This document shows positions 20,409 through 58,657 of a DNA stretch of 64,000 bases, piece by piece. A program made the position numbers and the translations under genes. The notes beneath the pieces were generated by a model. That model did not search any database and was not told the origin of the DNA. It saw nothing but the letters and a program-made list of their open reading frames with translations. The first letter of the stretch is position 1. Each line of letters starts with the position of its first letter. Origin of the DNA: Candidatus Symbiothrix sp. Lineage in GTDB: Bacteria > Bacteroidota > Bacteroidia > Bacteroidales > Azobacteroidaceae. The stretch is taken from the NCBI GenBank assembly GCA_031261285.1, contig JAISKM010000087.1, positions 4,516 through 68,515 on the forward strand. The letters run 5' to 3'.

Positions 20409-21139
20409 ATGCAAACTGAAACACAATACATAGAATTTAAATCGGGTTTTAATGAAGATGTCATTGAAACGTTGGTCGCTTTTGCTAACAGCCGTATGAT
20501 ATTCAAATCAAAATTTTTGACAAGGAAATTGCAATTTATAATCCTGGAAAACTATCGGGCAACCTAACCTTTGAAGATCTGAAAACAGATAATTATCAGG
20601 CGTATGCAAGGAATAAACTGCTCGCCGAAGCATTTTATCTTACAGGTGATATAGAAAAATACGGAAGCGGTTTTCGCCGCATCAGAGAACATCTTGAAGT
20701 ATATCCAACAATGAAAACCGAATTTAAGAAAGTCCCTAATGGATTGCTTTTTACTTATTTGTACGTTGTACAAAAAAATTCGACATTTTTTCCCTACTAT
20801 ACCCCTGAAATGCTTGATGATGACACAAGAAAAGGAGTGTTGAAAGAGAACGATACTCCAGATACAGAACAAGTCAGGGCGGAAGTTACAGGACAAGTTA
20901 CAGGACAAGTTACAGGACAAGTAGAAAAATTACTTTTAATACTCAAAAATCAAGAACTTTCCGTAAAAGAAATGATGGAGTATTTGTTATTAAGTGGTAG
21001 AGATAATTTTTTGACTTTATACTTACAGCCTGCAATAGAACAGGGTTTTGTAGCAATGAAATATCCACAAAGTCCCAACCACCCCAAGCAACGCTATTGC
21101 TTGACGGAAAAAGGGAAAAGTATAATTACTGGAAAATGA
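20409..21139 (+). pseudogene. AlbA_2/HATPase_c_4/wHTH protein with internal deletion
   Basis: MQTETQYIEFKSGFNEDVIETLVAFANS joined near 20490 to frame-shifted DIQIKIFD...RNKLLAEAFY...IEKYGSGF; GQVT x3 repeat; PQSPNHPKQRY end. Confidence 0.7.
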
Positions 21140-33026: not shown

Positions 33027-34091
33027 ATGAATCAAAGTAAATTGCCAATAATTTTTGACAATATTATTTTTTCCTTGCAACGAGCCGGAGGGGCGTCGGC
33101 TTACTGGTTTGAACTTTGTAAACGGGTAATCGTTGACGAAAGTTTTCAATGTCTGTTTTATGAATACAAAAACGCAGAACACAATATTTGTAAACAACAG
33201 TTGCAAATTCCGAAAGATATACTCATCAAAAAAGAAAATAAGCCAATAATTCTCGAACGATATTCTGATTTGCACAGCAAAACCGGCGGTGTTTTCCATT
33301 CCAGTCATTACCGTGATATATGTTCTACGGCGAAGACAAAAGAAGTGACTACAGTACATGATTTTACATACGAAAAATTATTTTCCGGCTTAAGAAAACA
33401 GGTGCATATTTGGCAAAAAACAAAGGCAATTGCCCATTCCGACATTGTGATATGTGTGTCGGAAAGCACGAAAAAAGATTTGTGCACCATGTATCCACAG
33501 TACCAGAACAAAGACATTCGAGTTGTTTACAATGGCGTTTCTGAAGATTATTATCCGCTGTTTCCGAAGACAGATTCTGCAATCCCTTATATTTTGTGGG
33601 TGGGTGCGCGAAACGATTATAAAAATTTTGATTTTGCCGCAAAATGGGTGAGCTCTTTGAAAGATTACGAATTTTGGATTGTTGGGCAACCTCTGTCACA
33701 TGAAGAACAGTTGTTGCTTGATAAGATGTTACCGAATAGAGTTAAATTCATCGGTTCAGTCACCAATGAAATGTTAAATCAACTATACAATAATGCGGTT
33801 TGCTTCTTGTATCCTTCGTCATACGAAGGGTTTGGTATCCCTGTAATCGAAGCTATGCGTGCCGGTTGTCCTGTTATTACTCTCAACACATCTTCGCTGC
33901 CGGAAGTATGCGGGGATGCGGGATTGATGGCCGAAAAATTGGATACAGATAATTTTACCGAATTATTGAATGATGTTGTAGCCCATCGGGAGCAAATTGT
34001 AGCAAAGGGACTGATACAATCAGCTAAATTTTCGTGGGACAAGTGTTATAGTGAAACCTCAGCCATTTATAAGGAATTAAGCAATGATTAA
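33027..34091 (+). CDS. GT4 glycosyltransferase
   Basis: YPSSYEGFGIPVIEAMRAGCP motif. Confidence 0.9.
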   Translation: MNQSKLPIIFDNIIFSLQRAGGASAYWFELCKRVIVDESFQCLFYEYKNAEHNICKQQLQIPKDILIKKENKPIILERYSDLHSKTGGVFHSSHYRDICSTAKTKEVTTVHDFTYEKLFSGLRKQVHIWQKTKAIAHSDIVICVSESTKKDLCTMYPQYQNKDIRVVYNGVSEDYYPLFPKTDSAIPYILWVGARNDYKNFDFAAKWVSSLKDYEFWIVGQPLSHEEQLLLDKMLPNRVKFIGSVTNEMLNQLYNNAVCFLYPSSYEGFGIPVIEAMRAGCPVITLNTSSLPEVCGDAGLMAEKLDTDNFTELLNDVVAHREQIVAKGLIQSAKFSWDKCYSETSAIYKELSND

Positions 34092-34182
34092 AAACAAATA
34101 CACAATCATCCAGAAAATACGTTTAGCGTATTGCTTAGTACGAACAAAATTACTGTGTCGGCAAGCACGCCTTATCCGTTAA
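34084..34182 (+). pseudogene. 5' stub of the acetyltransferase whose full copy starts at 35207
   Basis: MIKNKYTIIQKIRLAYCLVRTKLLCRQARLIR*; 12 mismatches in 93 nt versus 35213-35305. Confidence 0.8.
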
Positions 34183-34192
34183 AAAATGAGAA

Positions 34193-34390
34193 ATGAAAAA
34201 TAACAAATTGAAAAAACTCAATCCGGAGTTGGCGGTTGAATATCGGGATTTTTTGCGGGAAATCCTTACAAAAATTCAATCGGCACGCTACGAAATGCTC
34301 ATGTCCGTAGGCAAACAAAGGAGAGTTGTCATTTCTTGCATCGTGTCCAAAAACAGAAATGAACCCTCCCTATGCTTCTTCATGGCATGA
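34193..34390 (+). pseudogene. YhcG/DUF1016 N-terminal fragment
   Basis: YRDFLREILTKIQSARYEML...; similarity is lost after about 42 aa. Confidence 0.5.
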
Positions 34391-34436
34391 AATTTTCGCT
34401 CTTCTTTTACAATAAACAAATAATATAACGAAAAAA

Positions 34437-35206
34437 ATGAGAAAGACTAATACCATTGTTGTTCAGGAAACCAACATTTCTATAACCAAGGTTAATGATG
34501 AAGATTATATTTGCCTGACTGATATGGTCAAGGCAAACAAAGAAAGTAGTCGAACAGAAATACTAATTCAGAGTTGGATGCGACGCAAAGACACGATTCT
34601 TTTTTTAGCGGCATGGGAAAGTTTATATAATCCGGTTTTTAATTACATCGAATTCGATGTAATTAAAAATAAAGCCGGCGTTAATAGTTTTATATTGACG
34701 CCAAAAGAATGGAATATCAAAACCAATGCCATTGGTGTTATCGCAAAAACGGGAAGATATGGTGGTACGTATGCGAATGGGGTATAAAACGAGTGTTGAG
34801 CAAAGTGAACTATACATTACATACAGATGCTATAAAAGACTTTGTAATTCCAAAAATAGATGTAGAGCAACAAAAATTATATGTGTATGCCGATGAAGCC
34901 GATTTATTAAATCTTGCTTTGTGGAAATGCACCGCAAAACAATGGCGTGAAGCTAATATTAATCATGCACAAAAGGGATTGAATATTCGGGATGTGGCAA
35001 GCATAAATGAATTAGTTGTGCTTTCAAATATGGAATCATTTAATGTGGAATTGTTAAAAAGAGGTATAGATAAGTCTAAACGTTATGCCTATTTGAGTGA
35101 AATGGCACAAAACCAATTGACGCGTTTAAATGCGATAGATGCAGAAAAAGGTTTTAGAGCGATAGAAACAACACCAAGAGTGAAGGTTCTTAATAATTTT
35201 AAAAGA
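34437..35206 (+). pseudogene. KilA-N domain gene with internal deletion and frameshift
   Basis: DYICLTDM...GRYGGTYA joined near 34775 to frame-shifted EWGIKRVLSKVNYTLHTDAIK...YADEADLLN. Confidence 0.75.
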
Positions 35207-35800
35207 ATGGCAATTAAAAACAAATACTCAATTTTCCAGAAAATACGTTTAGCGTATTTTTTAATGCGAACAAAATTACTGTGCCGGCGAGCACGAATTA
35301 TCCGCTTCCCATTTGAAATAAGAGGGAAAGAATACATTGATTTAGGAACTGATTTGACAACAGGCGTTGGATGCCGGTTAGAAGCGTTTTCTGAAACAGG
35401 CGAAAAAACAATGCACTTCGGGAACAATGTGCAAATAAACGACTATGTGCATATTTGTTCCATGCAAAATGTTACTATAGGCAACAATGTTCTAATCGCC
35501 GGCAAAGTTTATATTTCAGATAATAGTCATGGGAGTTATAAAGGAGACGAGTTTGATACCTCTCCGGAAATAGAACCGATTAAACGTGCATATTATAAAA
35601 ATCCGGTCGTTATTGAAGATAATGTATGGATTGGCGAAGGCGTAGTAATTTTACCGGGCGTTACGCTTGGGAAAGGTTGTATCGTTGGTGCAAATTCTGT
35701 AGTATCTAAAAGTATTCCGCCTAATGTCATTGCCGTTGGAACTCCTGCAAAGCCAATAAAGCGTTTTAATTTTGAAATACAAAAATGGGCAAAAATATGA
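35207..35800 (+). CDS. LbH O-acetyltransferase
   Basis: [17 protein letters not shown] and VGTPAK motifs; in frame with the upstream KilA C-terminal region. Confidence 0.85.
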   Translation: MAIKNKYSIFQKIRLAYFLMRTKLLCRRARIIRFPFEIRGKEYIDLGTDLTTGVGCRLEAFSETGEKTMHFGNNVQINDYVHICSMQNVTIGNNVLIAGKVYISDNSHGSYKGDEFDTSPEIEPIKRAYYKNPVVIEDNVWIGEGVVILPGVTLGKGCIVGANSVVSKSIPPNVIAVGTPAKPIKRFNFEIQKWAKI

Positions 35801-36891
35801 TATTTGAGCAGTTAACACAACAAATAAAACAAACGCATGATGCGTTACAATGCTACGCGGCGAAAGCCATCAATGCCAGTTTGACTGTCAGAAATTGGTT
35901 AATTGGTTATTATATCGTTGAATATGAACAGAATGGTGAAGACAAGGCAATTTATGGTGGACATCTAATGGAAAAAATGGCGAAAAATTTGCTTAGACAA
36001 GGATTGAAAAATGTATCGGCTGCAGAATTGTCGCGATTTAGACAATTTTACTTTGCCTATCCTCAAATTTCTGGGACACTGTCCCAAAAATCATTGCATC
36101 TGCCGGAATCAATTCTTGGGACATTGTCCCAAGAATTAGTAATTGTTGAAAAGGAGAACTTATTAATAGACCCATTAAAGTTGTTATCTAATTTGTCTTT
36201 TTCTCATTTTGCTGAATTGATAAAAATTAATGATCCCCTGAAACGCACATTTTATGAAATAGAATGTATCAGAGGTACATGGGGAGTCAGGGAATTAAGA
36301 AGACAAATCAATTCATTGTTTTTTGAGCGAACCGGACTAAGTAAAAATCCCGGAAAATTAATTGCTCTTGCGCAAACGGATAATGAACATATCAGTATCA
36401 ACGAAATTATAAAATCTCCGTTTTCATTGGATTTTTTAGGATTAAATGCGAGAGATATTGTCCTTGAATCCGATATTGAGGTGGCGATTATGGAAAACAT
36501 ACAACATTTCTTGTTAGAATTAGGAAATGGGTTTTGTTTCGAAGCTCGTCAAAAAAGGATTCTGATAGAAGATGAATATTTTTTCATAGATTTGGTGTTT
36601 TATCACCGGATTTTGCATTGTCATGTGCTTATTGAAATCAAAGCCGATGAATTTAAGCATGAATACATTGGACAGTTGAATGCCTATTTGGAGCATTACA
36701 AACGAAAAGAGATGCAGGTAGGCGATAATCCACCTGTAGGTATTTTACTGGTTACAAACAAAAACAATACATTGGTGGAATATGCCAAAGGCTCAATGGA
36801 TAATCATCTTTTTGTGTCAAAGTATTTATTGGAGCTACCGGCAAAAGAAGTCTTGGAAGCTATTATTGAAAGTGAAATACTACAACATTAA
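35797..36891 (+). CDS. YhcG/DUF1016 PD-(D/E)XK nuclease-domain protein
   Basis: RNWLIGYYIVEYEQ, FCFEARQKR, DLVFYHRILHCHVLIEIK and GQLNAYL motifs. Confidence 0.9.
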   Translation: MIFEQLTQQIKQTHDALQCYAAKAINASLTVRNWLIGYYIVEYEQNGEDKAIYGGHLMEKMAKNLLRQGLKNVSAAELSRFRQFYFAYPQISGTLSQKSLHLPESILGTLSQELVIVEKENLLIDPLKLLSNLSFSHFAELIKINDPLKRTFYEIECIRGTWGVRELRRQINSLFFERTGLSKNPGKLIALAQTDNEHISINEIIKSPFSLDFLGLNARDIVLESDIEVAIMENIQHFLLELGNGFCFEARQKRILIEDEYFFIDLVFYHRILHCHVLIEIKADEFKHEYIGQLNAYLEHYKRKEMQVGDNPPVGILLVTNKNNTLVEYAKGSMDNHLFVSKYLLELPAKEVLEAIIESEILQH

Positions 36892-36914
36892 AAGTTTAAT
36901 TCCGACACTCAAAA

Positions 36915-38060
36915 ATGGACAAAAATATGAATATTTTAATTACCGGAGGTGCCGGATTTATCGGCTCAAACCTCGCATTGGCATTAATAAGTAAAGGCTA
37001 TACGGTGACCGTATTGGACAATTTATCGCCACAAATACACGGCGAAAATCCGAAAGAGACCTCTCCGTTGTACAAATCCATACAAGGGAAAGTTAATTTT
37101 ATAGCGGGTGACGTGACTTCCAAAACAGATTGGGAACGCGCGTTGGTCAATCAAGATGTGGTCGTGCACTTAGCGGCAGAAACCGGTACAGGGCAAAGTA
37201 TGTATGAAATAGAAAAATACACTCGTGTCAATATTGGAGGCACTGCGCTACTATTGGATATTCTCACTAATCAAAAACACACGGTAAAAAAGGTAGTTGT
37301 GGCGTCATCAAGGGCTATTTATGGCGAGGGGAAATACCTGTGTCAAAAATGTGGCGTGGTATATCCAACTGCCCGCAAAGATGAGGATATGAAGCGTGGT
37401 GATTTTGAATGTAAATGTCCTCAATGTAATGGTGAACTGACCTTGCAGGCGACAAGTGAAGACAGCAAAATACATCCTACTTCTGTTTATGGAATTACCA
37501 AACAAAATCAGGAACAGATGGTCATGACTGTTTGCCCCACTATCGGCGTAGCAGGAGTGGCTTTCCGTTATCAAAATGTGTATGGACCGGGGCAGTCATT
37601 GTCAAACCCTTATACCGGAATATTGTCGATATTTTCAACGCAAATAAAAAACAATAACCCAATCAATATCTTTGAAGATGGAAGGGAAACGCGTGATTTT
37701 GTTTATATAGATGACGTTGTTGCAGCTACAGTATTGGGAATAGAACGTGGAGAAGCAAACAATCACGTGTTTAATGTGGGAACGGCCGAAGCAATAGATG
37801 TGATAACTGTAACCGAAGAATTGCAAAAAAACTACGGCGTGCGTGTCCCGACCAACATCTCAGGCAACTATCGCTTAGGAGATATTCGACATAACTATGC
37901 AGACCTGACATTGATAAAGCAGCGATTAGGCTTTGTACCCAAAATAAATTTTGTTGAAGGAATAAAAAAATTCGCAGCATGGGTAAGCGAACAAGCGGTA
38001 CAGGTCGACAAATACACCGAGTCTATTGAAGAATTAAAGTCAAGAGGATTATACAAATGA
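36915..38060 (+). CDS. NAD-dependent epimerase/dehydratase
   Basis: GGAGFIGS and YGITK motifs; CxxC...CxCxxC insert. Confidence 0.88.
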   Translation: MDKNMNILITGGAGFIGSNLALALISKGYTVTVLDNLSPQIHGENPKETSPLYKSIQGKVNFIAGDVTSKTDWERALVNQDVVVHLAAETGTGQSMYEIEKYTRVNIGGTALLLDILTNQKHTVKKVVVASSRAIYGEGKYLCQKCGVVYPTARKDEDMKRGDFECKCPQCNGELTLQATSEDSKIHPTSVYGITKQNQEQMVMTVCPTIGVAGVAFRYQNVYGPGQSLSNPYTGILSIFSTQIKNNNPINIFEDGRETRDFVYIDDVVAATVLGIERGEANNHVFNVGTAEAIDVITVTEELQKNYGVRVPTNISGNYRLGDIRHNYADLTLIKQRLGFVPKINFVEGIKKFAAWVSEQAVQVDKYTESIEELKSRGLYK

Positions 38061-39046
38061 GCATTTTTGCAAATAAAAAAATCCTGTTTTTTTCATCGCA
38101 ATTATTTGGATATGAAATAGATATAAAATCCAAAATGGAAGCATTAGGAGCGAGTGTTGATTATTTTGACGATCGTCCTTCTAATACTTTTTTTACCAAA
38201 GCATGTATTAGGATAAATCCTAAAATCTTGGATAAAAAAATAACTGACTACTATAATAACATTGTTGAAAAAGTCAAGGAGAAAGACTATGATTATATAT
38301 TTTTTATTAAAGGAGAAGCGATTTCTAAGACGATATTGAAGCGGTTAAAACAGGAACATCCTCGTGCCAAAATGATATTGTATTTATGGGATTCTATCCG
38401 CAACAATAGAAATGCACTTAATAATTTGGACTGTTTTGATAAGATATTGTCTTTCGACAAAGACGATGTGCAAAAATATGGATTTGTTTTTAGACCATTG
38501 TTTTACACCGATGCCTACAAAGGTCTTGCAACAGGAACTTCGTTTGTTTACGATGCCCTTTTCGTAGGGACGGTACATAGTGACAGATACCTCTTTATAG
38601 AAAATATTAAGCAACAAATGTCAGCTTTTGCGAAAACTCTGTATACCTATTATTTCTTTCCGAGCATTATTTTATATTACAGAAAAAAAATAGTCGATCG
38701 AACATTCAAAAAAACAAAAAGTTCCAATTTCCAATTTTCTGCTCTTTCAAAAGAAAAATTGCTCACATTGGTAAATCAATCTTTTTGTTTGGTTGACGTC
38801 CAACATCCGAAACAAACCGGATTAACTATGCGTACGATTGAAGCCCTTGGTGCGCACAAAAAATTAATCACAACTAATGAAACTATCAAGGATTATGATT
38901 TCTATAATCCTCATAATATTTTGGTTGTTAACAGAGAAAATCCAATCATAAAAGTAGAGTTTTGGAATACGCCTTATCAGAATATAGAATCCGATATTTA
39001 TAAGAAATATTCCATTGAATCTTGGTTAAATGATATTGTACACTAA
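38057..39046 (+). CDS. Polysaccharide biosynthesis protein (glycosyltransferase-like)
   Basis: LYLWDS, FVGTVHSDR and GLTMRTIEALG motifs; operon context. Confidence 0.6.
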   Translation: MSIFANKKILFFSSQLFGYEIDIKSKMEALGASVDYFDDRPSNTFFTKACIRINPKILDKKITDYYNNIVEKVKEKDYDYIFFIKGEAISKTILKRLKQEHPRAKMILYLWDSIRNNRNALNNLDCFDKILSFDKDDVQKYGFVFRPLFYTDAYKGLATGTSFVYDALFVGTVHSDRYLFIENIKQQMSAFAKTLYTYYFFPSIILYYRKKIVDRTFKKTKSSNFQFSALSKEKLLTLVNQSFCLVDVQHPKQTGLTMRTIEALGAHKKLITTNETIKDYDFYNPHNILVVNRENPIIKVEFWNTPYQNIESDIYKKYSIESWLNDIVH

Positions 39047-39205: not shown

Positions 39206-39267
39206 ACTATAAAAACGTCCAATGGGTGGTTATAAATTCGCATCAAAAAAACGTAATACTCTCTCTC

Positions 39268-39329
39268 TGCCAAAACAGGGAATGAAACGTTGCCAAAACA
39301 GGGAATGAAATGCTGCCAAAACAGGGAAT
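39268..39329 (+). repeat. 23-bp tandem repeat (2.7 copies) upstream of AAA gene promoter
   Basis: tgccaaaacagggaatgaaaYGY units. Confidence 0.8.
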
Positions 39330-39386
39330 TTGTTTTGTAAATTGCTTATAATATGTTATCTTTGCTCTTTAAAAAAAAGAATATAA

Positions 39387-39968
39387 ATGGAAGAAAAAAA
39401 ATACCTGAATAGAATTTGTGATGACTTGCTACAGCAGTCCTTACAATCTTCCGGCGCAGTGCTTATAGAAGGAGCAAAGTGGTGTGGGAAAACAAGTATG
39501 GCAATGAAAGCTGCAGCAAGTTCGCTGTTTATGCAGGACCCCGACAAATCAAAATCATATCAAAATCTTGCCGACAATGTAACTGCTCATACAGGCACAG
39601 GCAGGATTTCGCGCTTATTGATGCGCCCAATGAGTCTGTACGAATCGTTGGAATCGAACGGCTCTGTTTCACTACAAGATTTATTTGAAGGAAAAACAAA
39701 TATAGAGGCAATGAGTACTTTGAGTATTGAACAAATGGCCTTTGTTATATGTCGTGGTGGCTGGCCCCAATCGGTAAAACAAAAACCCGGTTCAGCATTG
39801 CGCATGGCTGCCAATTATGTTGATGCGGTAATAAACCTTGATGTGCAAAGGGTTGACGGCATAGAGAAAAATCCGGAAAAAGTGCGCGTGTTGCTGCGTT
39901 CCTTAGCACGAAATATAGCCGTTATTGTAATAGCTGTTACAGTAACTGTGGTTACAATTCAAAAATAA
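39387..39968 (+). pseudogene. AAA ATPase (DUF4143 family), internally deleted and 3'-truncated
   Basis: GAKWCGKTS Walker A; Walker B segment missing between YQNLA and DNVTAHTGTGR; ends after LARNI. Confidence 0.75.
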
Positions 39969-40000
39969 TTTGTATCTTTGCAGCGAATAAAAATAGTTGA

Positions 40001-41320
40001 ATGATGTTGAAGTTTTATGACCGCGAAAAAGAAATAGCTCTTTTGGAGAAGATTGAGCAAAAATCGTTGGAATCTGCTCAAATGACTTTCATTGTGGGAC
40101 GGCGACGTATTGGAAAAACGGCTTTGCTTACGAAAACATTTCAGGGAAAGTCGGCATTGTATTTTTTTGTGGAAAAAAAGAACGAGGCTTTACTTTGTGA
40201 AGAATTTGCGAACGAAATTCGCAACAAATTGGCAGTAACTATTTTTGGCGAGATGCGTTCTTTCAAAGAGGTATTTGGTTATTTGATGGAACTTTCGCAA
40301 GCGCGACATTTTACACTGATTATTGATGAATTTCAGGAGTTCCGAAACATTAACGCGTCAATTTACAGCGAAATGCAGAACGTTTGGGATGCCAATAAAG
40401 ATAAAAGTAAAATCAACCTGATTCTTTCTGGCTCGATTTATTCACTGATGAAACAGATTTTTGAAAATTCCAAAGAGCCGCTGTTTGGCAGAGCAACGGC
40501 CAGAATTCATATTAAAGCATTTGATATTGACACAATTAAAGGCATTATGCGTGATTATCGTCCCAATTTTTCAAATGAAGATTTACTGGCATTTTATCTT
40601 TTTACCGGCGGTGTAGCAAAATATGTTGAATTGTTGGCTGATGCGAAAGCATTTACGCTACGCAGCATTGTAAATGAGATTTTTTCGGATAACTCTCTTT
40701 TTCTTGACGAAGGCAAAAATGCCTTGATAGATGAGTTTGGCAAGGATTATGGAAACTATTTTTCAATACTTTCGCTTATTGCTTCGTCCAAAACCTCGCG
40801 CTCGGAAATAGAATCAATTTTGAATATGAATATCGGCGGTTTTTTGGAAAAATTGGAGAATGAATACGGCTTGATTACTAAGGTACGCCCTATTTTGTCG
40901 AAACCTGCTGGTAAAAATGTGAAATATCGAATCAACGACAATTTTCTGAATTTTTGGTTCCGATTTATTTATAAATATCGTGGTGCCGTGGAAACGGAAA
41001 GTTTTGATTATCTGAAAGATATAGTTAATAGAGATTATAAAACTTATAGTGGACAAATTTTGGAGCGGTATTTCCGTGAAAAAATCAGAAAGGAAGAAAA
41101 TCTTTCGGCAATTGGTGCGTATTGGGAAAGCGGCAATCGGAATGAAATTGATATTGTGGCAATTAACGAATATGAGAAGCGCGCCATAATCGCCGAAGTA
41201 AAACGCAATGCTGAAAAAATAAACCTGAATATATTGCAGGAAAAAGCAGAAACACTTGTGAGTAAACAACTCGTGGGCTACACAATAGAATATCGCGGAT
41301 TGTCAATGGAGGAAATGTAA
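40001..41320 (+). CDS. ATPase_2 (archaeal-type) ATPase with DUF234 nuclease-like C-terminus
   Basis: GRRRIGKT, IIDEFQ, DNFLNFWFRF and EIDIVA...EVK motifs. Confidence 0.88.
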   Translation: MMLKFYDREKEIALLEKIEQKSLESAQMTFIVGRRRIGKTALLTKTFQGKSALYFFVEKKNEALLCEEFANEIRNKLAVTIFGEMRSFKEVFGYLMELSQARHFTLIIDEFQEFRNINASIYSEMQNVWDANKDKSKINLILSGSIYSLMKQIFENSKEPLFGRATARIHIKAFDIDTIKGIMRDYRPNFSNEDLLAFYLFTGGVAKYVELLADAKAFTLRSIVNEIFSDNSLFLDEGKNALIDEFGKDYGNYFSILSLIASSKTSRSEIESILNMNIGGFLEKLENEYGLITKVRPILSKPAGKNVKYRINDNFLNFWFRFIYKYRGAVETESFDYLKDIVNRDYKTYSGQILERYFREKIRKEENLSAIGAYWESGNRNEIDIVAINEYEKRAIIAEVKRNAEKINLNILQEKAETLVSKQLVGYTIEYRGLSMEEM

Positions 41321-41325
41321 AAATT

Positions 41326-42255
41326 ATGGGTGATTATAAATTCGCATCAAAAAAATTTAATCTCCTTTTTACCGGTGCAAACGGCTTCCTCGGCAAAAAT
41401 ATCCAGCCGCTTTTAGAAGCAGACGGTTACGTCATTTCTAAGTTAGACATTGCAAATGCCGACATTGAATGTAATATCAGCAAAGAAATCCCCAATTTCA
41501 ATACGCGCCATTATGATCTTGTGCTTCATGCTGCCGGTAAAGCCCACGTTGTGCCGAAAACGGAAGCCAAGAAGCAAGCCTTTTTCGACATCAATTATCA
41601 AGGAACAGTTAATCTGTGTAAGGCATTAGAAAAAATCGGTTTGCCTCAATCTTTTATATTTATTAGCACCGTAGCGGTTTATGGTTGCGATTTTGGCGAA
41701 AACATTACGGAAGAGCATCCATTAAATGGTGATACACCTTACGCGTTAAGCAAAATTCAAGCAGAAAAATACCTGACAGAATGGTGTCGTGAGCACCATG
41801 TGATTCTGTCGATCATTCGTCCATCGTTGATTGCGGGACCAAACCCTCCGGGTAATTTGGGCGACATGATTAAAGGAATAAAAACAGGACGCTATGTAAA
41901 TATTGCCGGCGGTAAAGCAAAGAAAAGTGTGCTGATGGTGCAAGATATTGCTCGTTTAGTGCCTTTGTTGGCTGAAAAGGGAGGTGTCTATAATGTGTGT
42001 GACGATGAACAGCCGACCTTTGCCCAATTAGCCGAATTAATTGCACAACAACTGAATAAAAACTCTCCTTTGAATATTCCCTATTGGTTGGCAAAATCAA
42101 TGGCGTTGGTTGGCGACTGTCTTGGCAAAAAAGCTCCCATCAATTCGTTGAAACTGAAAAAGATAATGGCGTCTTTGACTTTCAACAATGCAAAAGCAAA
42201 AAGAGAGTTGAATTGGCAGCCACTTTCGGTGTTGGATAATTTCAAAATAAAATAA
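41326..42255 (+). CDS. NAD-dependent epimerase/reductase
   Basis: TGANGFLG, HAAGKAH and YALSK motifs. Confidence 0.85.
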   Translation: MGDYKFASKKFNLLFTGANGFLGKNIQPLLEADGYVISKLDIANADIECNISKEIPNFNTRHYDLVLHAAGKAHVVPKTEAKKQAFFDINYQGTVNLCKALEKIGLPQSFIFISTVAVYGCDFGENITEEHPLNGDTPYALSKIQAEKYLTEWCREHHVILSIIRPSLIAGPNPPGNLGDMIKGIKTGRYVNIAGGKAKKSVLMVQDIARLVPLLAEKGGVYNVCDDEQPTFAQLAELIAQQLNKNSPLNIPYWLAKSMALVGDCLGKKAPINSLKLKKIMASLTFNNAKAKRELNWQPLSVLDNFKIK

Positions 42256-42381: not shown

Positions 42382-43521
42382 ATGTATAACAGAAGGCAGG
42401 TTTTGGAAGGGTCTGAAAATGAGAGCGTATTTTTATGGGGTGCGCGGCAAACGGGTAAAAGTACATTGATTAAATCATTGTTTCCTGATGCGTTGATGTT
42501 CGATTTATTGCTCAATAGCGACTATGAAAAGTTGCTAAACAATCCTTCGCTGATTCACGAAATGATTGAAGCAGATACGTCAATTCAAACAGTTGTCATT
42601 GATGAAATACAACTTTTGCCTCAATTGTTGAACGAGATTCATTGGCTGATTGTCAATAAAAACATTCGATTCATAATGAGTGGTTCAAGCACTCGTAAAA
42701 TTTTACGTGCCGGTGTCAATTTATTGGGAGGTAGAGCGTTGCGCTACGAACTATACCCTTTGGTTAGCACTGAAATACCTGATTTTGATTTGTTGAAAGC
42801 GTTAAACAACGGTTTATTGCCACGACTTTACGATGCAACGAATGCAAAAAAAATGTTGTCGGCATATATAGGTAGCTATTTGCGTGATGAAATTGCAGCC
42901 GAGGCACAAGTCAGAAATATGCCTGCTTTCGGACGTTTTCTCGAAACGACGGCTCTCACAAATGGCGAAATGGTCAACTATACAAATATTGCATCTGATA
43001 CAAGTGTAAGTGTGAATACAGTCAAAACGTATTTTCAAATCTTGGAAGAAACACTGTTAGGACGTTATTTGCCGTCATTTCAGAAAAGACCTAAACGGCG
43101 GGTGATTTCTGCACCCAAATTTTATCTGTTTGATGTGGGGGTGGCTAATTCGTTGCTTAACAGAGGGAAAATAGAATTTGGGACGGAGCTTTTTGGCAAA
43201 GCTTTTGAACATTTCATTTATCAGGAAATTTATGCCCACAGTCGCTATTCCGACAGCAATTACCCGATTTATTATTGGCGGACAGCCTCGCAATTAGAAA
43301 TTGATTTTGTGCTCGGCGACCATGAAGTAGCGATAGAAGTGAAATCCACCACGCAAGCCAACCCGCACCATTTGAAGGGACTAAAAGCATTTGCCGAAGA
43401 ATACAATGTAAAGCATAAAATACTGATTTCCAACGACCCTCATCCACGTTTGGTCGACGGTATAATGATTTATCCGTGGAATGTTTTTTTACAAAAACTG
43501 TGGGCAGGTGAAATAATTTAA
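42382..43521 (+). CDS. AAA_14 ATPase with DUF4143 domain
   Basis: GARQTGKS, IDEIQ, PKFYLFDVG and EIDF...IEVKS motifs. Confidence 0.9.
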   Translation: MYNRRQVLEGSENESVFLWGARQTGKSTLIKSLFPDALMFDLLLNSDYEKLLNNPSLIHEMIEADTSIQTVVIDEIQLLPQLLNEIHWLIVNKNIRFIMSGSSTRKILRAGVNLLGGRALRYELYPLVSTEIPDFDLLKALNNGLLPRLYDATNAKKMLSAYIGSYLRDEIAAEAQVRNMPAFGRFLETTALTNGEMVNYTNIASDTSVSVNTVKTYFQILEETLLGRYLPSFQKRPKRRVISAPKFYLFDVGVANSLLNRGKIEFGTELFGKAFEHFIYQEIYAHSRYSDSNYPIYYWRTASQLEIDFVLGDHEVAIEVKSTTQANPHHLKGLKAFAEEYNVKHKILISNDPHPRLVDGIMIYPWNVFLQKLWAGEII

Positions 43522-43590
43522 TATACGCACACTTTAAAGTGCTATTTTTGATATAAATTGCACAATATTTAATACAATTTTTTTATACCT

Positions 43591-44934
43591 GTGATGCAAA
43601 CACCCGGAGTTTATAGCGTTGAAAAGAACGCATTCCCTAATTCTGTTGTAGAAGTGGCAACCGCCGTTCCTGCCTTCATCGGTTATACCGAAAAAGCCCT
43701 CAATGGGGACAAATCCTTGCTCAATAAGCCTTTCCGAATTACTTCCATAGCGGAATTTCGTGCCTGTTTTGGCGAAGCGCCTCGACCTAAATTTAGCTTC
43801 GAAGCGTTGGCAGATGGAATTTATGTCCTCAAACGGGTCGATTCTTTTACACTGTATTACAACATGTTGCTGTTTTATGCGAACGGTGGTGGTCCCTGCT
43901 ACATTGTTTCTGTAGGCGACTATACGAGCGATGACATTGACAAGGCAAAATTGCAAGCCGGTATTGACACACTTGTAAAAGAGCAGGAGCCGACTTTATT
44001 AGTGATACCCGAAGCGGTGAACCTCAAGGCAAGTAAGGATTGTTACGCTTTACAACGAGCGATGTTAGCGCATTGCGGAAGTGTCATGAAAAATCGTTTC
44101 GCCATATTGGATATTTACGATGGAGCAAAAGATAGCAAAGGTCATCAGGGAGATGTGATAAACGCATTTCGCGAACAGGTAGGAAATGAGTTTCTTGATT
44201 ATGGTGCAGCTTATTATCCCTGGATCAATACTTCTATCGTGCAGGAAAAGGAACTCAGTTTTCAGAATTTGGATATTGTCACGCAGAATGGTTTGTTGAC
44301 GGATGAATTAAGTCCGCTTTATGCTCGAATTATCGGAGAGATGCGTTTTATGCTCAATTTGCTTCCCATATCAGCCGCCATGGCAGGTGTTTACGCCTTG
44401 ACTGACAGTACAAAAGGCGTATGGAAAGCTCCAACTAATGTCGGTATTGCGAAGGCTGTTAGTCCGGCGGTCAGTATTTTGCACGAAGCGCAAGAAGAGT
44501 TGAATGTGTCTGTCAGCGGCAAATCTGTCAATGTCATCCGTTCTTTTATCAGTGAAGGAATAATAATTGGGGGAGCGCGCACTTTGGACGGCAACTCCTT
44601 GAATTGGAGGTATATAAATGTACGCCGCACGATGATTATGTTGGAAGAATCGATTAAGAACGCTTTGAAAGCATACGTTTTTGAGCCGAATGTTGCCACT
44701 ACATGGGTAAACGTGAAAGGTATGATTTCCAACTTTCTTAATGGAATATGGAAGCGTGGAGGGTTAGCAGGTGATAAGCCTGACAATGCGTATCGCGTAC
44801 ACGTGGGGTTGGGTGAAACAATGACATCCACAGACTATCTCGAAGGCATCATGCGTATTACTGTCTTGGTGGCACTTGTTCGTCCAGCAGAATTTATCGA
44901 GATTACCTTCCAACAACAAATGCAGAAAAGTTAA
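43591..44934 (+). CDS. Contractile tail sheath protein (eCIS Afp2/3-like), orphan
   Basis: TPGVYSVEKNAFPNSVVEVATAVPAFIGYTE, GAAYYPW, WRYINVRR and RPAEFIEITFQQ motifs. Confidence 0.88.
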   Translation: MMQTPGVYSVEKNAFPNSVVEVATAVPAFIGYTEKALNGDKSLLNKPFRITSIAEFRACFGEAPRPKFSFEALADGIYVLKRVDSFTLYYNMLLFYANGGGPCYIVSVGDYTSDDIDKAKLQAGIDTLVKEQEPTLLVIPEAVNLKASKDCYALQRAMLAHCGSVMKNRFAILDIYDGAKDSKGHQGDVINAFREQVGNEFLDYGAAYYPWINTSIVQEKELSFQNLDIVTQNGLLTDELSPLYARIIGEMRFMLNLLPISAAMAGVYALTDSTKGVWKAPTNVGIAKAVSPAVSILHEAQEELNVSVSGKSVNVIRSFISEGIIIGGARTLDGNSLNWRYINVRRTMIMLEESIKNALKAYVFEPNVATTWVNVKGMISNFLNGIWKRGGLAGDKPDNAYRVHVGLGETMTSTDYLEGIMRITVLVALVRPAEFIEITFQQQMQKS

Positions 44935-44988
44935 CGTAATTACAAATTAAAAATTTGTATAATTCAAATAAAAACACTATCTTTGTAC

Positions 44989-45273
44989 ATGCCACGCTCA
45001 CAAGACATAAAAGATTTTATCCGCGAACACCAAGCTCTGTTTTGGTATTCGCCCGAAGACAAGTGCGAAACGGTAAGCGACGAACTGCTGGTGGAAACGA
45101 TATTGAATTACGGCGATATGTCTGCCGTAGTAAAATTATTTCGACTTATGGGAATAAAAAAAGTGGCAAAAATATATTTTTCCTCTATCAATCGTAGTGA
45201 AAGAAGTAAAAATAATTACCATGAATTGACATCAAATTATTTCACTTTATTATTTAATCGCTATGCACATTGA
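44989..45273 (+). CDS. Small protein, putative antitoxin partner of the AbiEii-like gene
   Basis: LFWYS...LVETILNYGD motif; overlaps the downstream gene; -7 box at 44978-44985. Confidence 0.6.
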   Translation: MPRSQDIKDFIREHQALFWYSPEDKCETVSDELLVETILNYGDMSAVVKLFRLMGIKKVAKIYFSSINRSERSKNNYHELTSNYFTLLFNRYAH

Positions 45274-45703
45274 GATATTATCAGATAAACAGCAAGAATT
45301 GTTGTCGTTTGTTTCACAATTCAAACGTAGTTTTTATTTGGTTGGAGGCACGTATCCGGTAACTCATCCTGTTAAATTGGATACCATCATTTCGATGCCA
45401 TCCTTGTTGTCGCTGGCGGCAATGAAGGCGTTTGCTTTGGGCAGGCGAACCAAATGGAAAGATTATGTTGATCTTTATTTTTTGTTGAGAGATTCTTTTA
45501 CGGTACAGGAAATTTCTGATGAAGCCGAAAAGATATTTGGAGATCTATTTTCTGAAAAATTGTTTAGGCAACAATTAGCTTTTCACGCAGACATTGATTA
45601 TCGTGAGCAAGTGGATTTCTTGCCGGGCTTTGAAGTCGGTGCAGAAGAAGTAAAAGATTTTTTGATTGATAAGTCGTTAGAACTAAATCTTGGTGTTGCA
45701 TAA
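45263..45703 (+). pseudogene. AbiEii-type nucleotidyltransferase with in-frame internal deletion
   Basis: FYLVGGT directly followed by YPVTHPVK; HRxSxDxD region absent; MKAFALGRR..KDYVDLY retained. Confidence 0.7.
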
Positions 45704-45722
45704 TTTTAAAATAGAAAAAATA

Positions 45723-45788
45723 TAACAACAGTATTTTCAATGGTTATCGACCAAAAAACCACTTAACAACAGTATTTTCAATGGTTAT
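45723..45788. repeat. 25-bp direct repeat x2, operator-like
   Basis: taacaacagtattttcaatggttat at 45723 and 45764, upstream of -7 box 45816-45823. Confidence 0.8.
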
Positions 45789-45844
45789 TTTATTGTTTTA
45801 TCCAAGAAAAATGACTACCTTTGCAGCATGAAAAACAAAGAAAC

Positions 45845-46156
45845 ATGGATTGGCAAAATTTAAGTAATGCAGCTGCAATAGCAGAAATCGGAAAGCGATT
45901 AAAAGCTTACCGCCTGAAGAAAAAACTGACGCAAAAAGATTTGGCTGAACGAGCTGGAATCAGTTTGTTTACAGTGGCGCAAATGGAAAAAGGAAGACCC
46001 GTTTCCATCACTATGTTGCTCCCTGTGCTACGAGTACTGCGTTTGTTGGATAATTTGGAGCAACTTGTGCCCGAAATTGGCATAAGCCCAATAGAACTGA
46101 TGAAACTGAAAGGCAAAACGCCCCAACGAATAAAACCACCTAAAGAGAAATTGTGA
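45845..46156 (+). CDS. XRE HTH antitoxin (HipB-like)
   Basis: LTQKDLAERAGISLFTVAQMEKG; similar to 18477 protein. Confidence 0.85.
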   Translation: MDWQNLSNAAAIAEIGKRLKAYRLKKKLTQKDLAERAGISLFTVAQMEKGRPVSITMLLPVLRVLRLLDNLEQLVPEIGISPIELMKLKGKTPQRIKPPKEKL

Positions 46157-46161
46157 GTTAA

Positions 46162-46236
46162 GTTCGACCCCTTTGGGGTCGCATATTTATAGGGGAGCAT
46201 ATCATCTATAAACATCCTGACCCCGTAGGGGTCGAC
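46162..46236. repeat. Paired REP palindromes between hipB and hipA
   Basis: cgacccctttggggtcg and gaccccgtaggggtc. Confidence 0.75.
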
Positions 46237-46249
46237 TAATTAATAATTG

Positions 46250-47542
46250 ATGGAAACGGTATTAAAAGTGGTTTTGTGGGGCAAGGACGTGGCTGCGGTG
46301 GTTTGGGACAAAGCGCGCACTTGCGCCACGCTGGAGTTTTACGATTCGTTTGTCAACGAGCGATTGAACGTTGCGCCGCTCGCTATGCCGTTACACGATA
46401 TTGTGAGGGGGGATAAGGTGTTTACTTTCCCTTCATTGAGCGAAAAAACATTCAAGGGATTACCGGGATTGTTAGCGGATTCACTTCCTGACGATTATGG
46501 TAATAAAATTCTGGACGAGTGGTTTGCCAGCCAAGGGTTGAGTTTTGCCGAATTTACTCCCATTGACCGTTTGTGTTATGTGGGTAAACGTGGGATGGGT
46601 GCTTTAGAATACGAGCCTGCCAATAAAGATACCGCTTTGAATGAGTCTGCAAAAATTGAAATCGAACAACTAACGACATTGGCAAGAGAAGTGCTGAATC
46701 AACGCGAAGCCTTTTGCGCCGATTTGCTCAAAGACGATAAACCCGTTTTAGATATATTAAAAGTAGGCACTTCCGCCGGCGGTGCTAAGCCCAAAGCCAT
46801 TATTGCCATCAATGAACAGACCGGAGAAATCCGTTCGGGACAAGTGAAAGCCCCCGATGGTTTTACCTATTGGCTACTCAAATTTGACGGAGTAGAAGAT
46901 CACAAATTAAGAGATAACCCTTTGGGAATCGGACGAATAGAATATGCCTACTACCAAATGGCAACTGATTGCGGCATTGAAATGACAGATTCTAAATTGC
47001 TGGTCGAAGGCGATTATGCCCATTTTATGACCAAACGTTTTGATCGGACGGATTTAGGCGAAAAACGGCATACGCAAACGCTCTGTGCCATTGCCCATTT
47101 CGATCGCGACGATCGCCATTCCTACGAACAAGCGTTTCAAGTGATGCGTCAACTGCATCTGCCGTATCCCGAAATGGAACAAATGTATCGTCGAATGGTC
47201 TTCAATGTCATCGCTCGCAACCACGATGATCACACCAAAAACCACTCATTCATCATGAGCAAAACAGGCGAATGGTCATTAGCTCCCGCCTACGATTTGT
47301 GCTACTCCTATTCGCCGTCAGGCAAGTGGACAAATCAGCACCAGTTGTCGCTCAACAACAAACGCGACAATTTCACGCAAGAAGACCTCCTTTCGGTGGC
47401 AAAAAACATGGACATAAAAAATGCCTCCGCAATTGTTCAACAAGTCACGGAAGTGGTCGCTCATTGGGAAACTTACGCACAAAAAGCAGATGTGAAAAAA
47501 GAGGCTATTCAACAAATAAAAGCAACGTTAAGACTATTTTAA
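46250..47542 (+). CDS. hipA: HipA-family kinase toxin
   Basis: SAGGAKPKA, KRFDR, NHDDHTKN and LAPAYDL motifs. Confidence 0.92.
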   Translation: METVLKVVLWGKDVAAVVWDKARTCATLEFYDSFVNERLNVAPLAMPLHDIVRGDKVFTFPSLSEKTFKGLPGLLADSLPDDYGNKILDEWFASQGLSFAEFTPIDRLCYVGKRGMGALEYEPANKDTALNESAKIEIEQLTTLAREVLNQREAFCADLLKDDKPVLDILKVGTSAGGAKPKAIIAINEQTGEIRSGQVKAPDGFTYWLLKFDGVEDHKLRDNPLGIGRIEYAYYQMATDCGIEMTDSKLLVEGDYAHFMTKRFDRTDLGEKRHTQTLCAIAHFDRDDRHSYEQAFQVMRQLHLPYPEMEQMYRRMVFNVIARNHDDHTKNHSFIMSKTGEWSLAPAYDLCYSYSPSGKWTNQHQLSLNNKRDNFTQEDLLSVAKNMDIKNASAIVQQVTEVVAHWETYAQKADVKKEAIQQIKATLRLF

Positions 47543-47621
47543 AATGAAATATAGTGCACTTTTTGCTTGTTTTATAAAATAAAAGCAGTATCTTTGTGCC
47601 GAAAGAGTAATTTATTGCACT

Positions 47622-47828
47622 ATGAAATTTGCTAAACAGATTAAAGAAAGACGTTCTGTGCTCGGAATCAACCAACAAGATTTGGCTGATATTTCCGGTG
47701 TGGGCTTGCGCACGATTAAGCAAATAGAGGTAGGAAAAGGGAATCCGTCTATTAAAACACTTTCGGCAATTTTAGATGTGTTGGGAATGGAATTAGTCAC
47801 AAAAATTAAAACAACATCTGAATTATGA
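47622..47828 (+). CDS. HTH antitoxin (HipB-like)
   Basis: INQQDLADISGVGLRTIKQIEVG; -7 box at 47589-47596. Confidence 0.85.
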   Translation: MKFAKQIKERRSVLGINQQDLADISGVGLRTIKQIEVGKGNPSIKTLSAILDVLGMELVTKIKTTSEL

Positions 47829-48154
47829 AGCAAGCTCAAGTGTATATGAATAAGCTATTGGCTGGAACGTTGAGAAAACAGGATGATGGAACTTATTTAT
47901 TTCGTTATAACGATGTTTATTTTGTAAACCCGGATTTGTCTGCCATAAGTTTAACATTACCTAAGACCAAACAGGAGTATCATTCCAGTGTGCTATTTCC
48001 TTTTTTCTTTAATATGCTTTCGGAAGGGGTGAATAAACAGGTGCAGTTACGGCAATTCAAATTAGACGAAGATGATTATTTTGGCTTGCTTTTGGCTACA
48101 GCAGGCAATGATACGATTGGAGCCATTACCGTCAAAGAATTGAAAGAAGCATGA
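47825..48154 (+). CDS. Stand-alone HipA N-terminal domain protein (HipS-like)
   Basis: ISLTLP, LFPFFFNMLSEG and DTIGAITV motifs. Confidence 0.82.
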   Translation: MKQAQVYMNKLLAGTLRKQDDGTYLFRYNDVYFVNPDLSAISLTLPKTKQEYHSSVLFPFFFNMLSEGVNKQVQLRQFKLDEDDYFGLLLATAGNDTIGAITVKELKEA

Positions 48155-49116
48155 TTGCCGCACCTGATACATATACTCCCATAACGCTCAAAAGAGTGTT
48201 TGACACTAAAAAAGTCAGCCCTCTGCTTGCTTTTTCCAATGTGGCAAGTCAGCGCAAAGTCATTGATGAAAATATTGGCAAAATCTCCATCTCCGGCGTG
48301 CAGGAAAAATTGTCTGTGATTATTGACCATGAGAAAATCATTTTAACGCCCGAAGGTGTGCAGGGGACGCATATTATTAAAGCTGCACCTGATTATAAAC
48401 GATTGAAAAATCGCAATCAATTACCTGCCAATGAACACCTTACGATGCAAATTGCGCAACAGGTTTATGGACTTTCGGTAGCTGAAAATGCCATGGTTTT
48501 TTTCCGAAATGGCGAAGCCGCGTATATCACGAAACGATTTGATATTGACAAAAATAAGTGTAAAATCAAGCAAGAGGATTTTGCTTCTTTGTCACAAAAA
48601 ACCAAAGAAACGGATGGCGACAATTTCAAATATACAGGCGATTATGTCACTGCCGGACAACTTATTAAACAGTTTGTAGCGGCTTGGCAAATTGAAACTG
48701 TCAAGTATTTTCGCCTGATAGTGTTCAACTATCTTTTTGCCAATGGCGATGCCCACTTAAAGAATTTTTCTTTACAGCAAACGACGACCGGCGATTATCT
48801 TTTAACGCCTGCTTATGATTTGTTGAATACTTCATTACACGTTAATGATGAAGATTTTGCGTTAAGCGGAGGGTTGTTTGATAAACAACATTGTTCTGAA
48901 ATATATCTGCAAACGTCGCATCCATGTCAGGAAGATTTTATGACGTTTGGGACGTTGTTGGAGATTCCGAAAGTAGTCATAAACAAGACGCTCAATAAAT
49001 TTACAACCCCACAAGGTTTAGTAACAGAATTAACGGAAAGATCATTCCTTAATGAGCAATTAAAACGCATGTACTTGAGAAGCTATCAAGAGCGATTGAG
49101 CCGGTTACAACGCTAA
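48151..49116 (+). CDS. HipA C-terminal kinase (HipT-like)
   Basis: SISGVQEK, ANEHLTMQ, KRFD, NGDAHLKNFS and LTPAYDL motifs. Confidence 0.85.
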   Translation: MIAAPDTYTPITLKRVFDTKKVSPLLAFSNVASQRKVIDENIGKISISGVQEKLSVIIDHEKIILTPEGVQGTHIIKAAPDYKRLKNRNQLPANEHLTMQIAQQVYGLSVAENAMVFFRNGEAAYITKRFDIDKNKCKIKQEDFASLSQKTKETDGDNFKYTGDYVTAGQLIKQFVAAWQIETVKYFRLIVFNYLFANGDAHLKNFSLQQTTTGDYLLTPAYDLLNTSLHVNDEDFALSGGLFDKQHCSEIYLQTSHPCQEDFMTFGTLLEIPKVVINKTLNKFTTPQGLVTELTERSFLNEQLKRMYLRSYQERLSRLQR

Positions 49117-58582: not shown

Positions 58583-58657
58583 TAAGTTTTGGCTGGGCTG
58601 ATTCACAGCATGGTGGCTCGGGTACATTCGATCCTTTGGCTGAATAACCGGTTTAAA

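Follow-up and report, generated by a model that had tools for sequence, protein, structure and literature searches.

What does it mean when an operon holds the first 32 codons of a gene, and then the same gene in full about 1 kb further on? This is the situation in a stretch of 64,000 nucleotides (nt) from Candidatus Symbiothrix sp. (assembly GCA_031261285.1, contig JAISKM010000087.1), which as a whole is called the window below. The gene encodes a hexapeptide O-acetyltransferase (AT). Its 5' stub is called AT-a here, and the intact gene AT-b.

The sequence comes from a termite-gut metagenome, and the organism is an uncultured Bacteroidia bacterium. The host locus is a long co-directional polysaccharide operon that spans roughly 7.2-51.3 kb of the window. 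The region studied lies inside it, at 33.0-39.0 kb. The operon encodes an aminotransferase, acetyltransferases, Wza, Wzz, UDP-sugar dehydrogenases, GT11, Glf, WbsX, GT2, Wzy, two GT4 glycosyltransferases (GT4a and GT4b), epimerases and WecA/WbaP-type initiating transferases.

By a modest balance of probability, the stub is a layered recombination scar at a slot for guest genes. Guest genes stand at exact gene junctions in this operon, the junction sequences are duplicated, and the same slot holds different cargo in a relative. Judged by sequence comparison, two haplotypes, each with an AT allele of its own, are joined between 34180 and 34420.

The stub, the intact gene and the joint between them

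AT-a starts with an ATG at 34084 and overlaps the stop of GT4b (34091) by 8 nt. It covers only residues 1-32 of AT, before the hexapeptide repeats, and is without function of its own. AT-b belongs to the hexapeptide acetyltransferases, and aligns at 100% coverage with homologues of 197 amino acids (aa) that are named lipopolysaccharide O-acetyltransferase. The two copies form a direct repeat, D2 (34087-34178 and 35213-35304), which is 88% identical over 92 nt and reaches E 3e-26 in a self-blast of the whole window. This bears out the first-pass annotation, which was made from the letters alone and described a stub at the overlapping GT4 junction, followed by a full copy at 35207; the stub measures 32 codons. 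The annotation also counted 12 differences in 93 nt, several of them synonymous. That count is exact: in codon register the copies match at 81 of 93 nt, and 4 codons differ synonymously and 6 non-synonymously.

The closest locus to the window, L040, is found in a Bacteroidia metagenome-assembled genome (MAG; GCA_025996695.1) at about 83% nt identity, and its AT allows a three-way comparison. Over the 93 nt, the stub differs at 12 positions from AT-b and at 12 from the L040 AT, while AT-b and the L040 AT differ at 17. Assigned to lineages, 3 changes fall on the stub, 8 on AT-b and 8 on the L040 AT. Decay in place would be expected to leave no fewer changes in the stub than in the selected copy. 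The stub has fewer, which is suggestive of diverged alleles rather than a decayed copy. The equal distance of the stub from both full genes (12/93 each) likewise agrees with the earlier view that these are diverged alleles and not a fresh target-site duplication.

The other main piece of evidence lies between the two copies. The ~1 kb found there consists of three pieces: the 5' part of a YhcG nuclease gene (YhcG-a), the 3' end of a glycosyltransferase gene (GT4'), and a broken KilA-N gene. GT4' is unrelated to GT4b, and in L040 the GT4' gene directly precedes AT. The C-terminus of the fragment, SFLASCPKTEMNPPYASSWHEIFALLLQ, is co-linear in protein with that of L040, SFFAPCPETEKKAPYASSWNEIFTLLLQ, both running up to a stop. 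AT-b is still linked to the end of its own former upstream neighbour, which shows directly that the locus is made of two glycan-locus haplotypes that were joined, with guest genes at the joint. Together with the 3-versus-8 pattern, the fragment indicates that AT-a and AT-b come from different haplotypes and that AT-a is a third allele.

The identity between the window and L040 is uniform, at about 83%, across the GT4' fragment, AT-b and the pair Epi1-unk329 (an NAD-dependent epimerase/dehydratase and a 329-aa unknown gene). The GT4' fragment, like the AT 3' stub described below, was not listed in the first-pass annotation. It does strengthen the idea put forward there that the replacement allele is linked to the cargo, as AT-b is tied to its own GT4' 3' end.

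Could a single event within one haplotype give the same picture? One cargo insertion would then have duplicated the first ~97 nt of AT, and the copies would have diverged in situ to 88%, with no second haplotype involved. Long direct repeats (21-121 nt) do flank guest genes at three places in the operon and also surround close YhcG relatives, and divergence is what one expects of old repeats. However, the GT4' 3' end, which belongs to the upstream neighbour of AT in L040, is then left unexplained within the cargo. It would also be odd for a non-functional stub to have fewer lineage-specific changes than the selected copy (3 against 8), and to be nearer to the L040 AT than AT-b is (12 against 17 of 93). 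A purely in-place duplication is a rather improbable account.

The joint might also be an artefact, in which two co-occurring strains or loci were stitched together during assembly by way of a shared YhcG-like repeat. The window is of metagenome origin, and at 34258-34297 the de Bruijn graph forms a tangle whose unitigs are 33-51 nt long and reach a depth of up to 133x. The YhcG-a sequence is multi-copy in the source metagenome, with a depth of 46-133x versus 10x. Against a chimera stand the independent Logan contigs of the source run. Each novel junction (AT-a/YhcG-a, YhcG-a/GT4', GT4'/KilA-N, KilA-N/AT-b, AT-b/YhcG-b and YhcG-b/AT-c) is internal to one of these contigs, with 0 mismatches, and the depths are even and match on either side (10.3, 13.1 and 10.8). 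The contigs break at two places only. One is a multi-copy node at 34258-34290, where the exact shared sequence is only ~33 nt, shorter than a read, and the other is a perfect 34-nt palindrome. Even if the join were wrong, GT4b, the stub and YhcG-a on contig 1 would be real. Parts of the same sequence are also present, at low depth, in a second run from a separate study; the region is found in no RNA run. A chimera is very unlikely.

The coordinates of the stub, the intact gene and the features around them are collected in Table 1.

Table 1. Features in and next to the studied region (window coordinates).
Feature	Position	Strand	Basis and remarks
GT4b glycosyltransferase, 354 aa	33027-34091	+	Pfam Glycos_transf_1/Glyco_transf_4; last gene of the serotype-specific left block
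AT-a, 32-codon 5' stub of AT, MIKNKYTIIQKIRLAYCLVRTKLLCRQARLIR and stop	34084-34182	+	Repeat D2; 28/32 aa to P0002
YhcG-a, truncated, first ~42 codons of a DUF1016/YhcG nuclease gene, MKNNKLKKLNPELAVEYRDFLREILTKIQSARYEMLMSVGKQ	34193-34317	+	phmmer homologues with DUF1016_N
GT4' 3' fragment, last ~32 codons and stop of a different GT4 gene	34318-34415	+	blastn, 83% to L040 4470-4557
KilA-N guest pseudogene (PADLOC PDC-S22)	34437-35206	+	Pfam KilA-N E 1e-8; PDC-S22 E 1e-45; PHROG 2657
AT-b, intact 197-aa hexapeptide O-acetyltransferase (WbbJ-like)	35207-35800	+	Pfam Hexapep E 6e-16; 88% aa to P0002
D8 copy 1, AT-b 3' end with stop overlapping the YhcG-b ATG (ATGA)	35765-35800	+	Repeat D8
YhcG-b, intact, DUF1016_N and YhcG_C PD-(D/E)XK predicted nuclease (PADLOC PDC-S02)	35797-36891	+	Pfam, PADLOC
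AT-c, 12-codon AT 3' stub, D8 copy 2, directly before Epi1	36895-36930	+	Repeat D8; orthologous stub in L040 at 9972-10003
Epi1 (NAD-dependent epimerase/dehydratase) and unk329 (329-aa unknown gene)	36915-39046	+	Pfam; 82.7% nt to L040
Site 2, Epi2 5' stub, 49 codons	39056-39205	+	Repeat D1, 88% over 121 nt, E 3e-38
Site 2 cargo (tandem repeat, AAA fragment, ATPase gene)	39222-41361	+	Bracketed by a 36-nt repeat, 39222-39257 and 41326-41361 (92%)
AAA fragment in site 2 cargo	39387-39968	+	
AAA ATPase_2/DUF234 gene in site 2 cargo (PDC-S27, E 2e-46)	40001-41320	+	PADLOC
Site 2, full Epi2 copy	41326-42255	+	First 12 codons from the 36-nt repeat, unlike the native start in the stub

Guest genes at exact gene junctions

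Comparison with relatives shows an ancestral module GT4-AT-Epi1-unk329, with tight or overlapping junctions. This module is uninterrupted, and its junctions are of that kind, in L031, L045, L055, L071 and L089. AT-Epi1-unk329 is conserved in about 40 loci, normally without interruption. In L041, L042, L043, L045 and L050 the AT/Epi1 junction is free of cargo and contains AAATGGGAAAAAATATGAATATTTT, where the AT stop overlaps the epimerase ATG (ATGA). The window keeps the gene order of the module, with three interruptions. A metagenome scan with AT found no relative above 66% and missed JGI relatives at 75-81%; it served only to define the ancestral junction.

An uninterrupted GT4-AT junction in related genomes had been proposed as a check in the first-pass annotation, and it is found in the five loci with the whole module as well as in L040. 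The annotation further called the GT4b/AT junction of the window native. This holds at the level of the family, since adjacency of GT4b-family genes and AT is common at greater evolutionary distance. It does not hold for the closest GT4b homologues (60-66%), which are followed by other genes instead of AT. Alignment with these homologues, and the junction sequences, also show that the last 3 codons of GT4b (SND, then the stop) are unlike theirs, and are made of sequence from upstream of AT and from its start. Taken together, this means that the GT4b/AT-a junction is itself a join of modules. A scan of genome contigs with GT4b gave a best match of only 62%, and an exact-protein look-up found GT4b in the source sample only.

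The AT/Epi1 junction occurs twice in the window. The first stop-start overlap feeds the ATG of YhcG-b and the second feeds Epi1, and YhcG-b is placed ORF-precisely (that is, to the exact open reading frame) at this overlap. The repeat involved, D8, is 83% identical over 36 nt, with a 21-nt core at 95% (E 6e-6). The stop of its second copy, AT-c, overlaps the probable start of Epi1 (ATG at 36927). With the junction duplicated around YhcG-b in this way, the insert amounts to a bare YhcG ORF plus a duplicated coupling junction.

YhcG-b belongs to the YhcG/DUF1016 family (PF17761 E 4e-26, PF06250 E 2e-50, PDC-S02 E 3.5e-120) and is by its family domains a predicted nuclease. Within its ORF, at 36111-36137, lies a 27-nt near-perfect palindrome with a 12-bp stem, which resembles a terminator.

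In L040 the order is GT4'-AT with a 6-nt spacer, then cargo, an AT 3' stub and Epi1-unk329. The cargo in this AT/Epi1 slot comprises an AAA_14/DUF4143 ATPase, along with a 75-aa ORF and a pair of Schlafen-AlbA2/HATPase_c_4/Fic_C proteins. Between the AT 3' stubs of the window and L040, 24 nt are identical, and one of these is a derived A absent from both full ATs. As the stubs share this A and the cargo differs, the slot must be old, and its cargo has been turned over. L040 also has an internal AT fragment at 13106-13183, after the last epimerase and at the contig end, of which the 26 aa are 92% identical to window AT residues ~93-118.

The two guest pieces between AT-a and AT-b are both broken. 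The 45-aa YhcG-a fragment has no direct match in Pfam, PHROGs, a plasmid tblastn search, or with a hidden Markov model built from YhcG-b N-termini. A phmmer search of 1.8 billion representative proteins did return homologues (P0362, P0364 and P0369), with 63-74% identity across residues 1-43. In these, DUF1016_N begins at residue ~23, and YhcG-a is therefore the first 42 codons of a YhcG-type gene. A further protein, P0363 (86 aa), has another N-terminus of the YhcG-a type, which is cut after SARYEMLLSV and fused to unrelated sequence, at almost the same codon as the truncation in the window.

The KilA-N gene sits in the 6-nt GT4'/AT spacer and has a frameshift near 34775-34787. Positions 4-80 and 117-236 of the 243 in PHROG 2657 are found in two different frames, and ~36 positions (~81-116) are missing. 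An intact domain with its C-terminal region in a single frame is absent, which makes this a pseudogene. The second frame has no stop before the AT-b ATG and runs open into the AT start, and that is why P0001 (335 aa), as called in the source, is a fused gene. The perfect 34-nt palindrome noted above, TTTTTAATTACATCGAATTCGATGTAATTAAAAA at 34636-34669, lies within the KilA-N coding sequence, at the same place as a Logan contig break. Conserved F-N..E-F..I-K residues with AT-rich codons account for part of it; the remaining positions are palindromic too.

The first-pass annotation had called both pieces debris. For KilA-N this is confirmed by Pfam and PHROG 2657, and for YhcG it stands by way of the homologues with DUF1016_N, though not by any Pfam match of the fragment itself. 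It is not random debris, though: the cargo comes from families known for nesting in operons, and close YhcG relatives have flanking repeats.

All guest genes match phage-defence-candidate (PDC) families of PADLOC, namely PDC-S02, PDC-S22, PDC-S27 and PDC-S01 (the last for AAA_14/DUF4143, E 6e-58), and are phage defence candidates by family membership. Embedded candidates are nested in the same orientation within a known defence system. The guests here are nested and co-oriented, but their host operon is one of glycan biosynthesis. On plasmids, YhcG nesting is seen as hsdM-YhcG-hsdS in Segatella and pglX-YhcG-pglZ in Methylomonas.

A second place in the operon, site 2, directly follows Epi1-unk329 and has a similar layout, with a stub of the epimerase gene Epi2, AAA cargo and a full Epi2. 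The architecture is thus not specific to YhcG. At the left edge of this cargo, just past the 36-nt repeat, there are three tandem copies of a 23-nt unit, TGCCAAAACAGGGAATGAAACGT (39268-39336). Flanking repeats were not found around the other cargo in the window (HipBA, the AAA gene at 42382, AbiEii and HipA).

Do such repeats also occur around YhcG genes elsewhere? The relatives of YhcG-b at 70-78% aa identity come from termite-gut Prevotellaceae, Azobacteroides, Tannerella MAGs and Fibromonadales MAGs, in varied contexts. Several close relatives have flanking direct repeats of 27-90 nt that are derived from the target. In L122 the repeat is 90 nt long and 96% identical, and in L137 it is 35 nt at 100%. 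In L139 (971-3464) there are two tandem YhcG genes with nested repeats. The first gene is bracketed by a 40-nt repeat at 100% that contains a Bacteroidetes-type promoter motif. The pair is bracketed by a 27-nt repeat at 96%, which is a 5' stub of the downstream LRR/Por_Secre_tail gene, with the full copy after it. In L121, YhcG overlaps the stop of an upstream epimerase in a glycan operon, where the repeat is only 11 nt, which is chance level. As a control, 784 ORFs across all fetched loci were examined; tandem paralogues aside, strong flanking repeats are present only at YhcG loci, and at none of the ~770 other ORFs. The notion that YhcG targets glycan genes was rejected, because close relatives of YhcG do not favour glycan loci in their contexts.

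Given these repeats, is the cargo perhaps mobile by itself? It could be, or have been, an integrative element directed at the AT 5' end that brings a replacement 5' end, or the YhcG nuclease could drive insertion or homing and co-convert glycan alleles. The series of stub, cargo and restored gene mimics the attL/attR of islands that target gene ends, and YhcG-b stands ORF-precisely at a conserved junction. YhcG is also multi-copy and enriched for flanking repeats. Its presence in different phyla, with 70% aa identity in Fibromonadales MAGs, suggests that the YhcG-b clade moved across phyla within termite guts. The Fibromonadales (Fibrobacterota) proteins in question are P0144 and P0149, at 70-71% aa.

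Yet no integrase, transposase or recombinase domain is found in or next to the cargo, and there are neither terminal inverted repeats nor conserved cassette ends. Repeats at different sites have unrelated sequences, which leaves no att core in common. They flank AAA-ATPase cargo without YhcG at site 2, many YhcG genes lack them, and homing does not duplicate targets. Self-mobility in either form is quite unlikely. A scan of viral contigs with YhcG-b found nothing.

A possible order of events

In the layered scar that is favoured here, the left haplotype contributes Wzy-GT4a-GT4b and what precedes them, 32 codons of AT-a and 42 codons of YhcG-a. The right haplotype, which is L040-like, supplies the last 98 nt of GT4', KilA-N, AT-b, YhcG-b with its 36-nt junction duplication, and Epi1-unk329.

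Two steps may account for this, where duplicative insertion may have made the stub first and allele replacement may have followed. In the first step, YhcG-a would enter AT-a by a duplicative insertion that copies the AT 5' end, which leaves the stub, YhcG-a and a full AT-a. This is modelled on close YhcG relatives with 27-90-nt repeats, and on the L139 stub before two YhcG genes. Candidates for the primary duplication would be template switching, single-crossover integration of circles with a short copy of the target, or widely staggered cleavage. Selection probably retains those insertions in which the displaced gene has its start, coupling or promoter signals rebuilt.

In the second step, DNA of the second haplotype would replace everything from YhcG-a codon 43 rightwards. 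It could do so if its left end was joined by a single illegitimate event and its right end recombined by homology within the conserved AT/Epi1 module. Such an event would either be homology-facilitated illegitimate recombination, or a deletion or resolution in a transient merodiploid. Acetylation would be kept, because the replacing DNA brings its own AT. Guest genes and glycan alleles are in this way physically linked, and would move together.

The first-pass annotation had envisaged that foreign DNA enters within a glycan gene. A single entry is too simple, as there are at least 3 or 4 separate junctions between 34180 and 36930. Either side of the joint may be the foreign one.

Several observations weigh against the two-step scar. 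The stub is only 93 nt long, and the contrast of 3 versus 8 changes is not significant alone (chi-square about 2.3). The join over the 33-nt multi-copy node at 34258-34290 is supported by the original assembly alone. An intermediate state was not found in any close relative (above 90% nt), which leaves the order and direction of events inferred. KilA-N has no flanking duplication. Flanking repeats are absent in L123, in L129/L130, and in the plasmid homologues embedded in restriction-modification (RM) and BREX systems, L141 and L142.

An alternative to a scar altogether is programmed variation, with the stub as a silent partial cassette for switching AT alleles or excising the cargo. The direct repeats could in principle allow the cargo (1.1 kb) to be lost, which would restore a hybrid AT at its junction with GT4b. 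But identity never extends beyond 24 nt at a stretch, no invertase or recombinase lies nearby, there is a single stub, the cargo is decayed, and the contigs of two runs contain no deletion joint. This idea is hardly credible.

The layered scar could also be one case of something broader, a generalisation that is speculative and rather unlikely to hold. Guest families would then enter operons by a stereotyped duplicative insertion that copies 20-120 nt of the target, by which the displaced gene keeps its start codon, translational-coupling overlap or promoter. The YhcG PD-(D/E)XK nuclease may promote this. A stub, cargo and a full copy would be the direct footprint, and operons for surface glycans, like those for defence, would be the landing pads.

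Known systems and other features of the operon

Islands that target tRNA or tmRNA genes integrate into the end of the gene and carry a replacement end. They share with the window the partial copy, the cargo in between, and the restored functional gene. In contrast, the window lacks an integrase and an identical att core; its repeats match at 83-92%, and its cargo is of mixed kinds and decayed. A site-specific integrative element with a replacement gene end was rejected as a candidate: the region has no recombinase domain, the longest identical run is 24 nt, and the repeats of the sites are unrelated.

Insertion sequences of the IS1634 type make long target duplications of variable size, from tens to hundreds of bp. 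Variable duplications that flank an insert are what they have in common with the window, where the cassettes lack a transposase gene and terminal inverted repeats. A fresh target-site duplication of a transposable element was likewise rejected, given repeats of 36-121 nt that are 83-92% identical, the lack of inverted repeats, and no transposase in 33-43 kb.

Mosaic glycan loci are well known. The 90 pneumococcal cps (capsule) loci are mosaic, with recombination and remains of mobile elements (PMC1391919). As in the window, they have a serotype-specific central block and conserved sugar-pathway genes, with foreign DNA and disrupted genes at the block borders. The foreign DNA there is mainly insertion sequence transposases and group II introns on the outer flanks, whereas the window has single genes without a transposase, at internal junctions that are duplicated.

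Integration through one-sided homology and merodiploids made by transformation have been documented, and the historic 'binary capsule' strains are capsule-locus merodiploids (PMC3784515). In homology-facilitated illegitimate recombination, a homologous anchor and an illegitimate join add foreign DNA, which can leave partial duplicates, much like those seen here. That work is experimental and in naturally transformable species, while in the window the process would have to be read from the scar alone.

The nesting of defence-type genes in operons has been described before. PADLOC PDC families are defined by nesting in defence operons, and linked horizontal transfer of guest and host system has been proposed, with the mechanism of embedding left open (Payne et al. 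2024, bioRxiv 10.1101/2024.01.29.577857). The same families are found here (PDC-S02, PDC-S22, PDC-S27 and PDC-S01). The hosts there are Hma, BREX, DISARM as well as type I RM systems, and the host here is a polysaccharide biosynthesis locus. The window adds footprints, in the form of junction duplications of 36-121 nt, gene stubs and fragments of neighbour genes. A literature search found nothing specific on glycan operons with defence genes embedded in them.

Mosaic glycan loci and embedded defence-candidate genes are thus the known elements, and the preserved footprints of the embedding are new. The route of entry has been open, and this locus preserves ORF-precise insertion at a duplicated stop-start overlap, 5' stubs before cargo, and a fragment of a donor neighbour gene. 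With it, the phenomenon also reaches a further kind of host, a surface-polysaccharide operon, on which phage selection itself acts. If the duplicative-insertion reading is true, alleles of phage receptors and defence genes would be exchanged as linked packages. If it is also general, serotype switching would be coupled to the flow of defence genes, and gene stubs in glycan loci could be used as markers of exchange events. If it is not, the locus is still a well-documented example of a mosaic glycan locus.

Among the other genes of the operon are three HipA modules, a Fic_C fragment and AbiEii fragments. Further guest genes lie at 18477-20022, 20711-21139 and 42382-49116, all upstream of the WecA-type transferase at 49144. 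They comprise HipB/HipA, the Fic_C fragment, an AAA_14/DUF4143 ATPase (PDC-S01), a second pair of HTH and HipA, and the AbiEii fragments. In addition, there is a HipA that is split into two ORFs at 47825-49116, and a tail-sheath-like protein is encoded at 43591-44934.

Rfam gave no match over the whole window, a scan for promoters and terminators gave a signal at background level, and the GC profile shows no sign of foreign DNA. A 95-nt direct repeat of 77% identity (7104-7197 and 18023-18114) lies in non-coding DNA; one copy precedes the first operon gene and the other the HipBA module, and it may represent a duplicated promoter or leader. Unrelated to the scar, two large adjacent ORFs at 58589-60373 and 60661-62352 are paralogous (36% aa identity across 500 aa) and have a DUF6383 protein as their neighbour.

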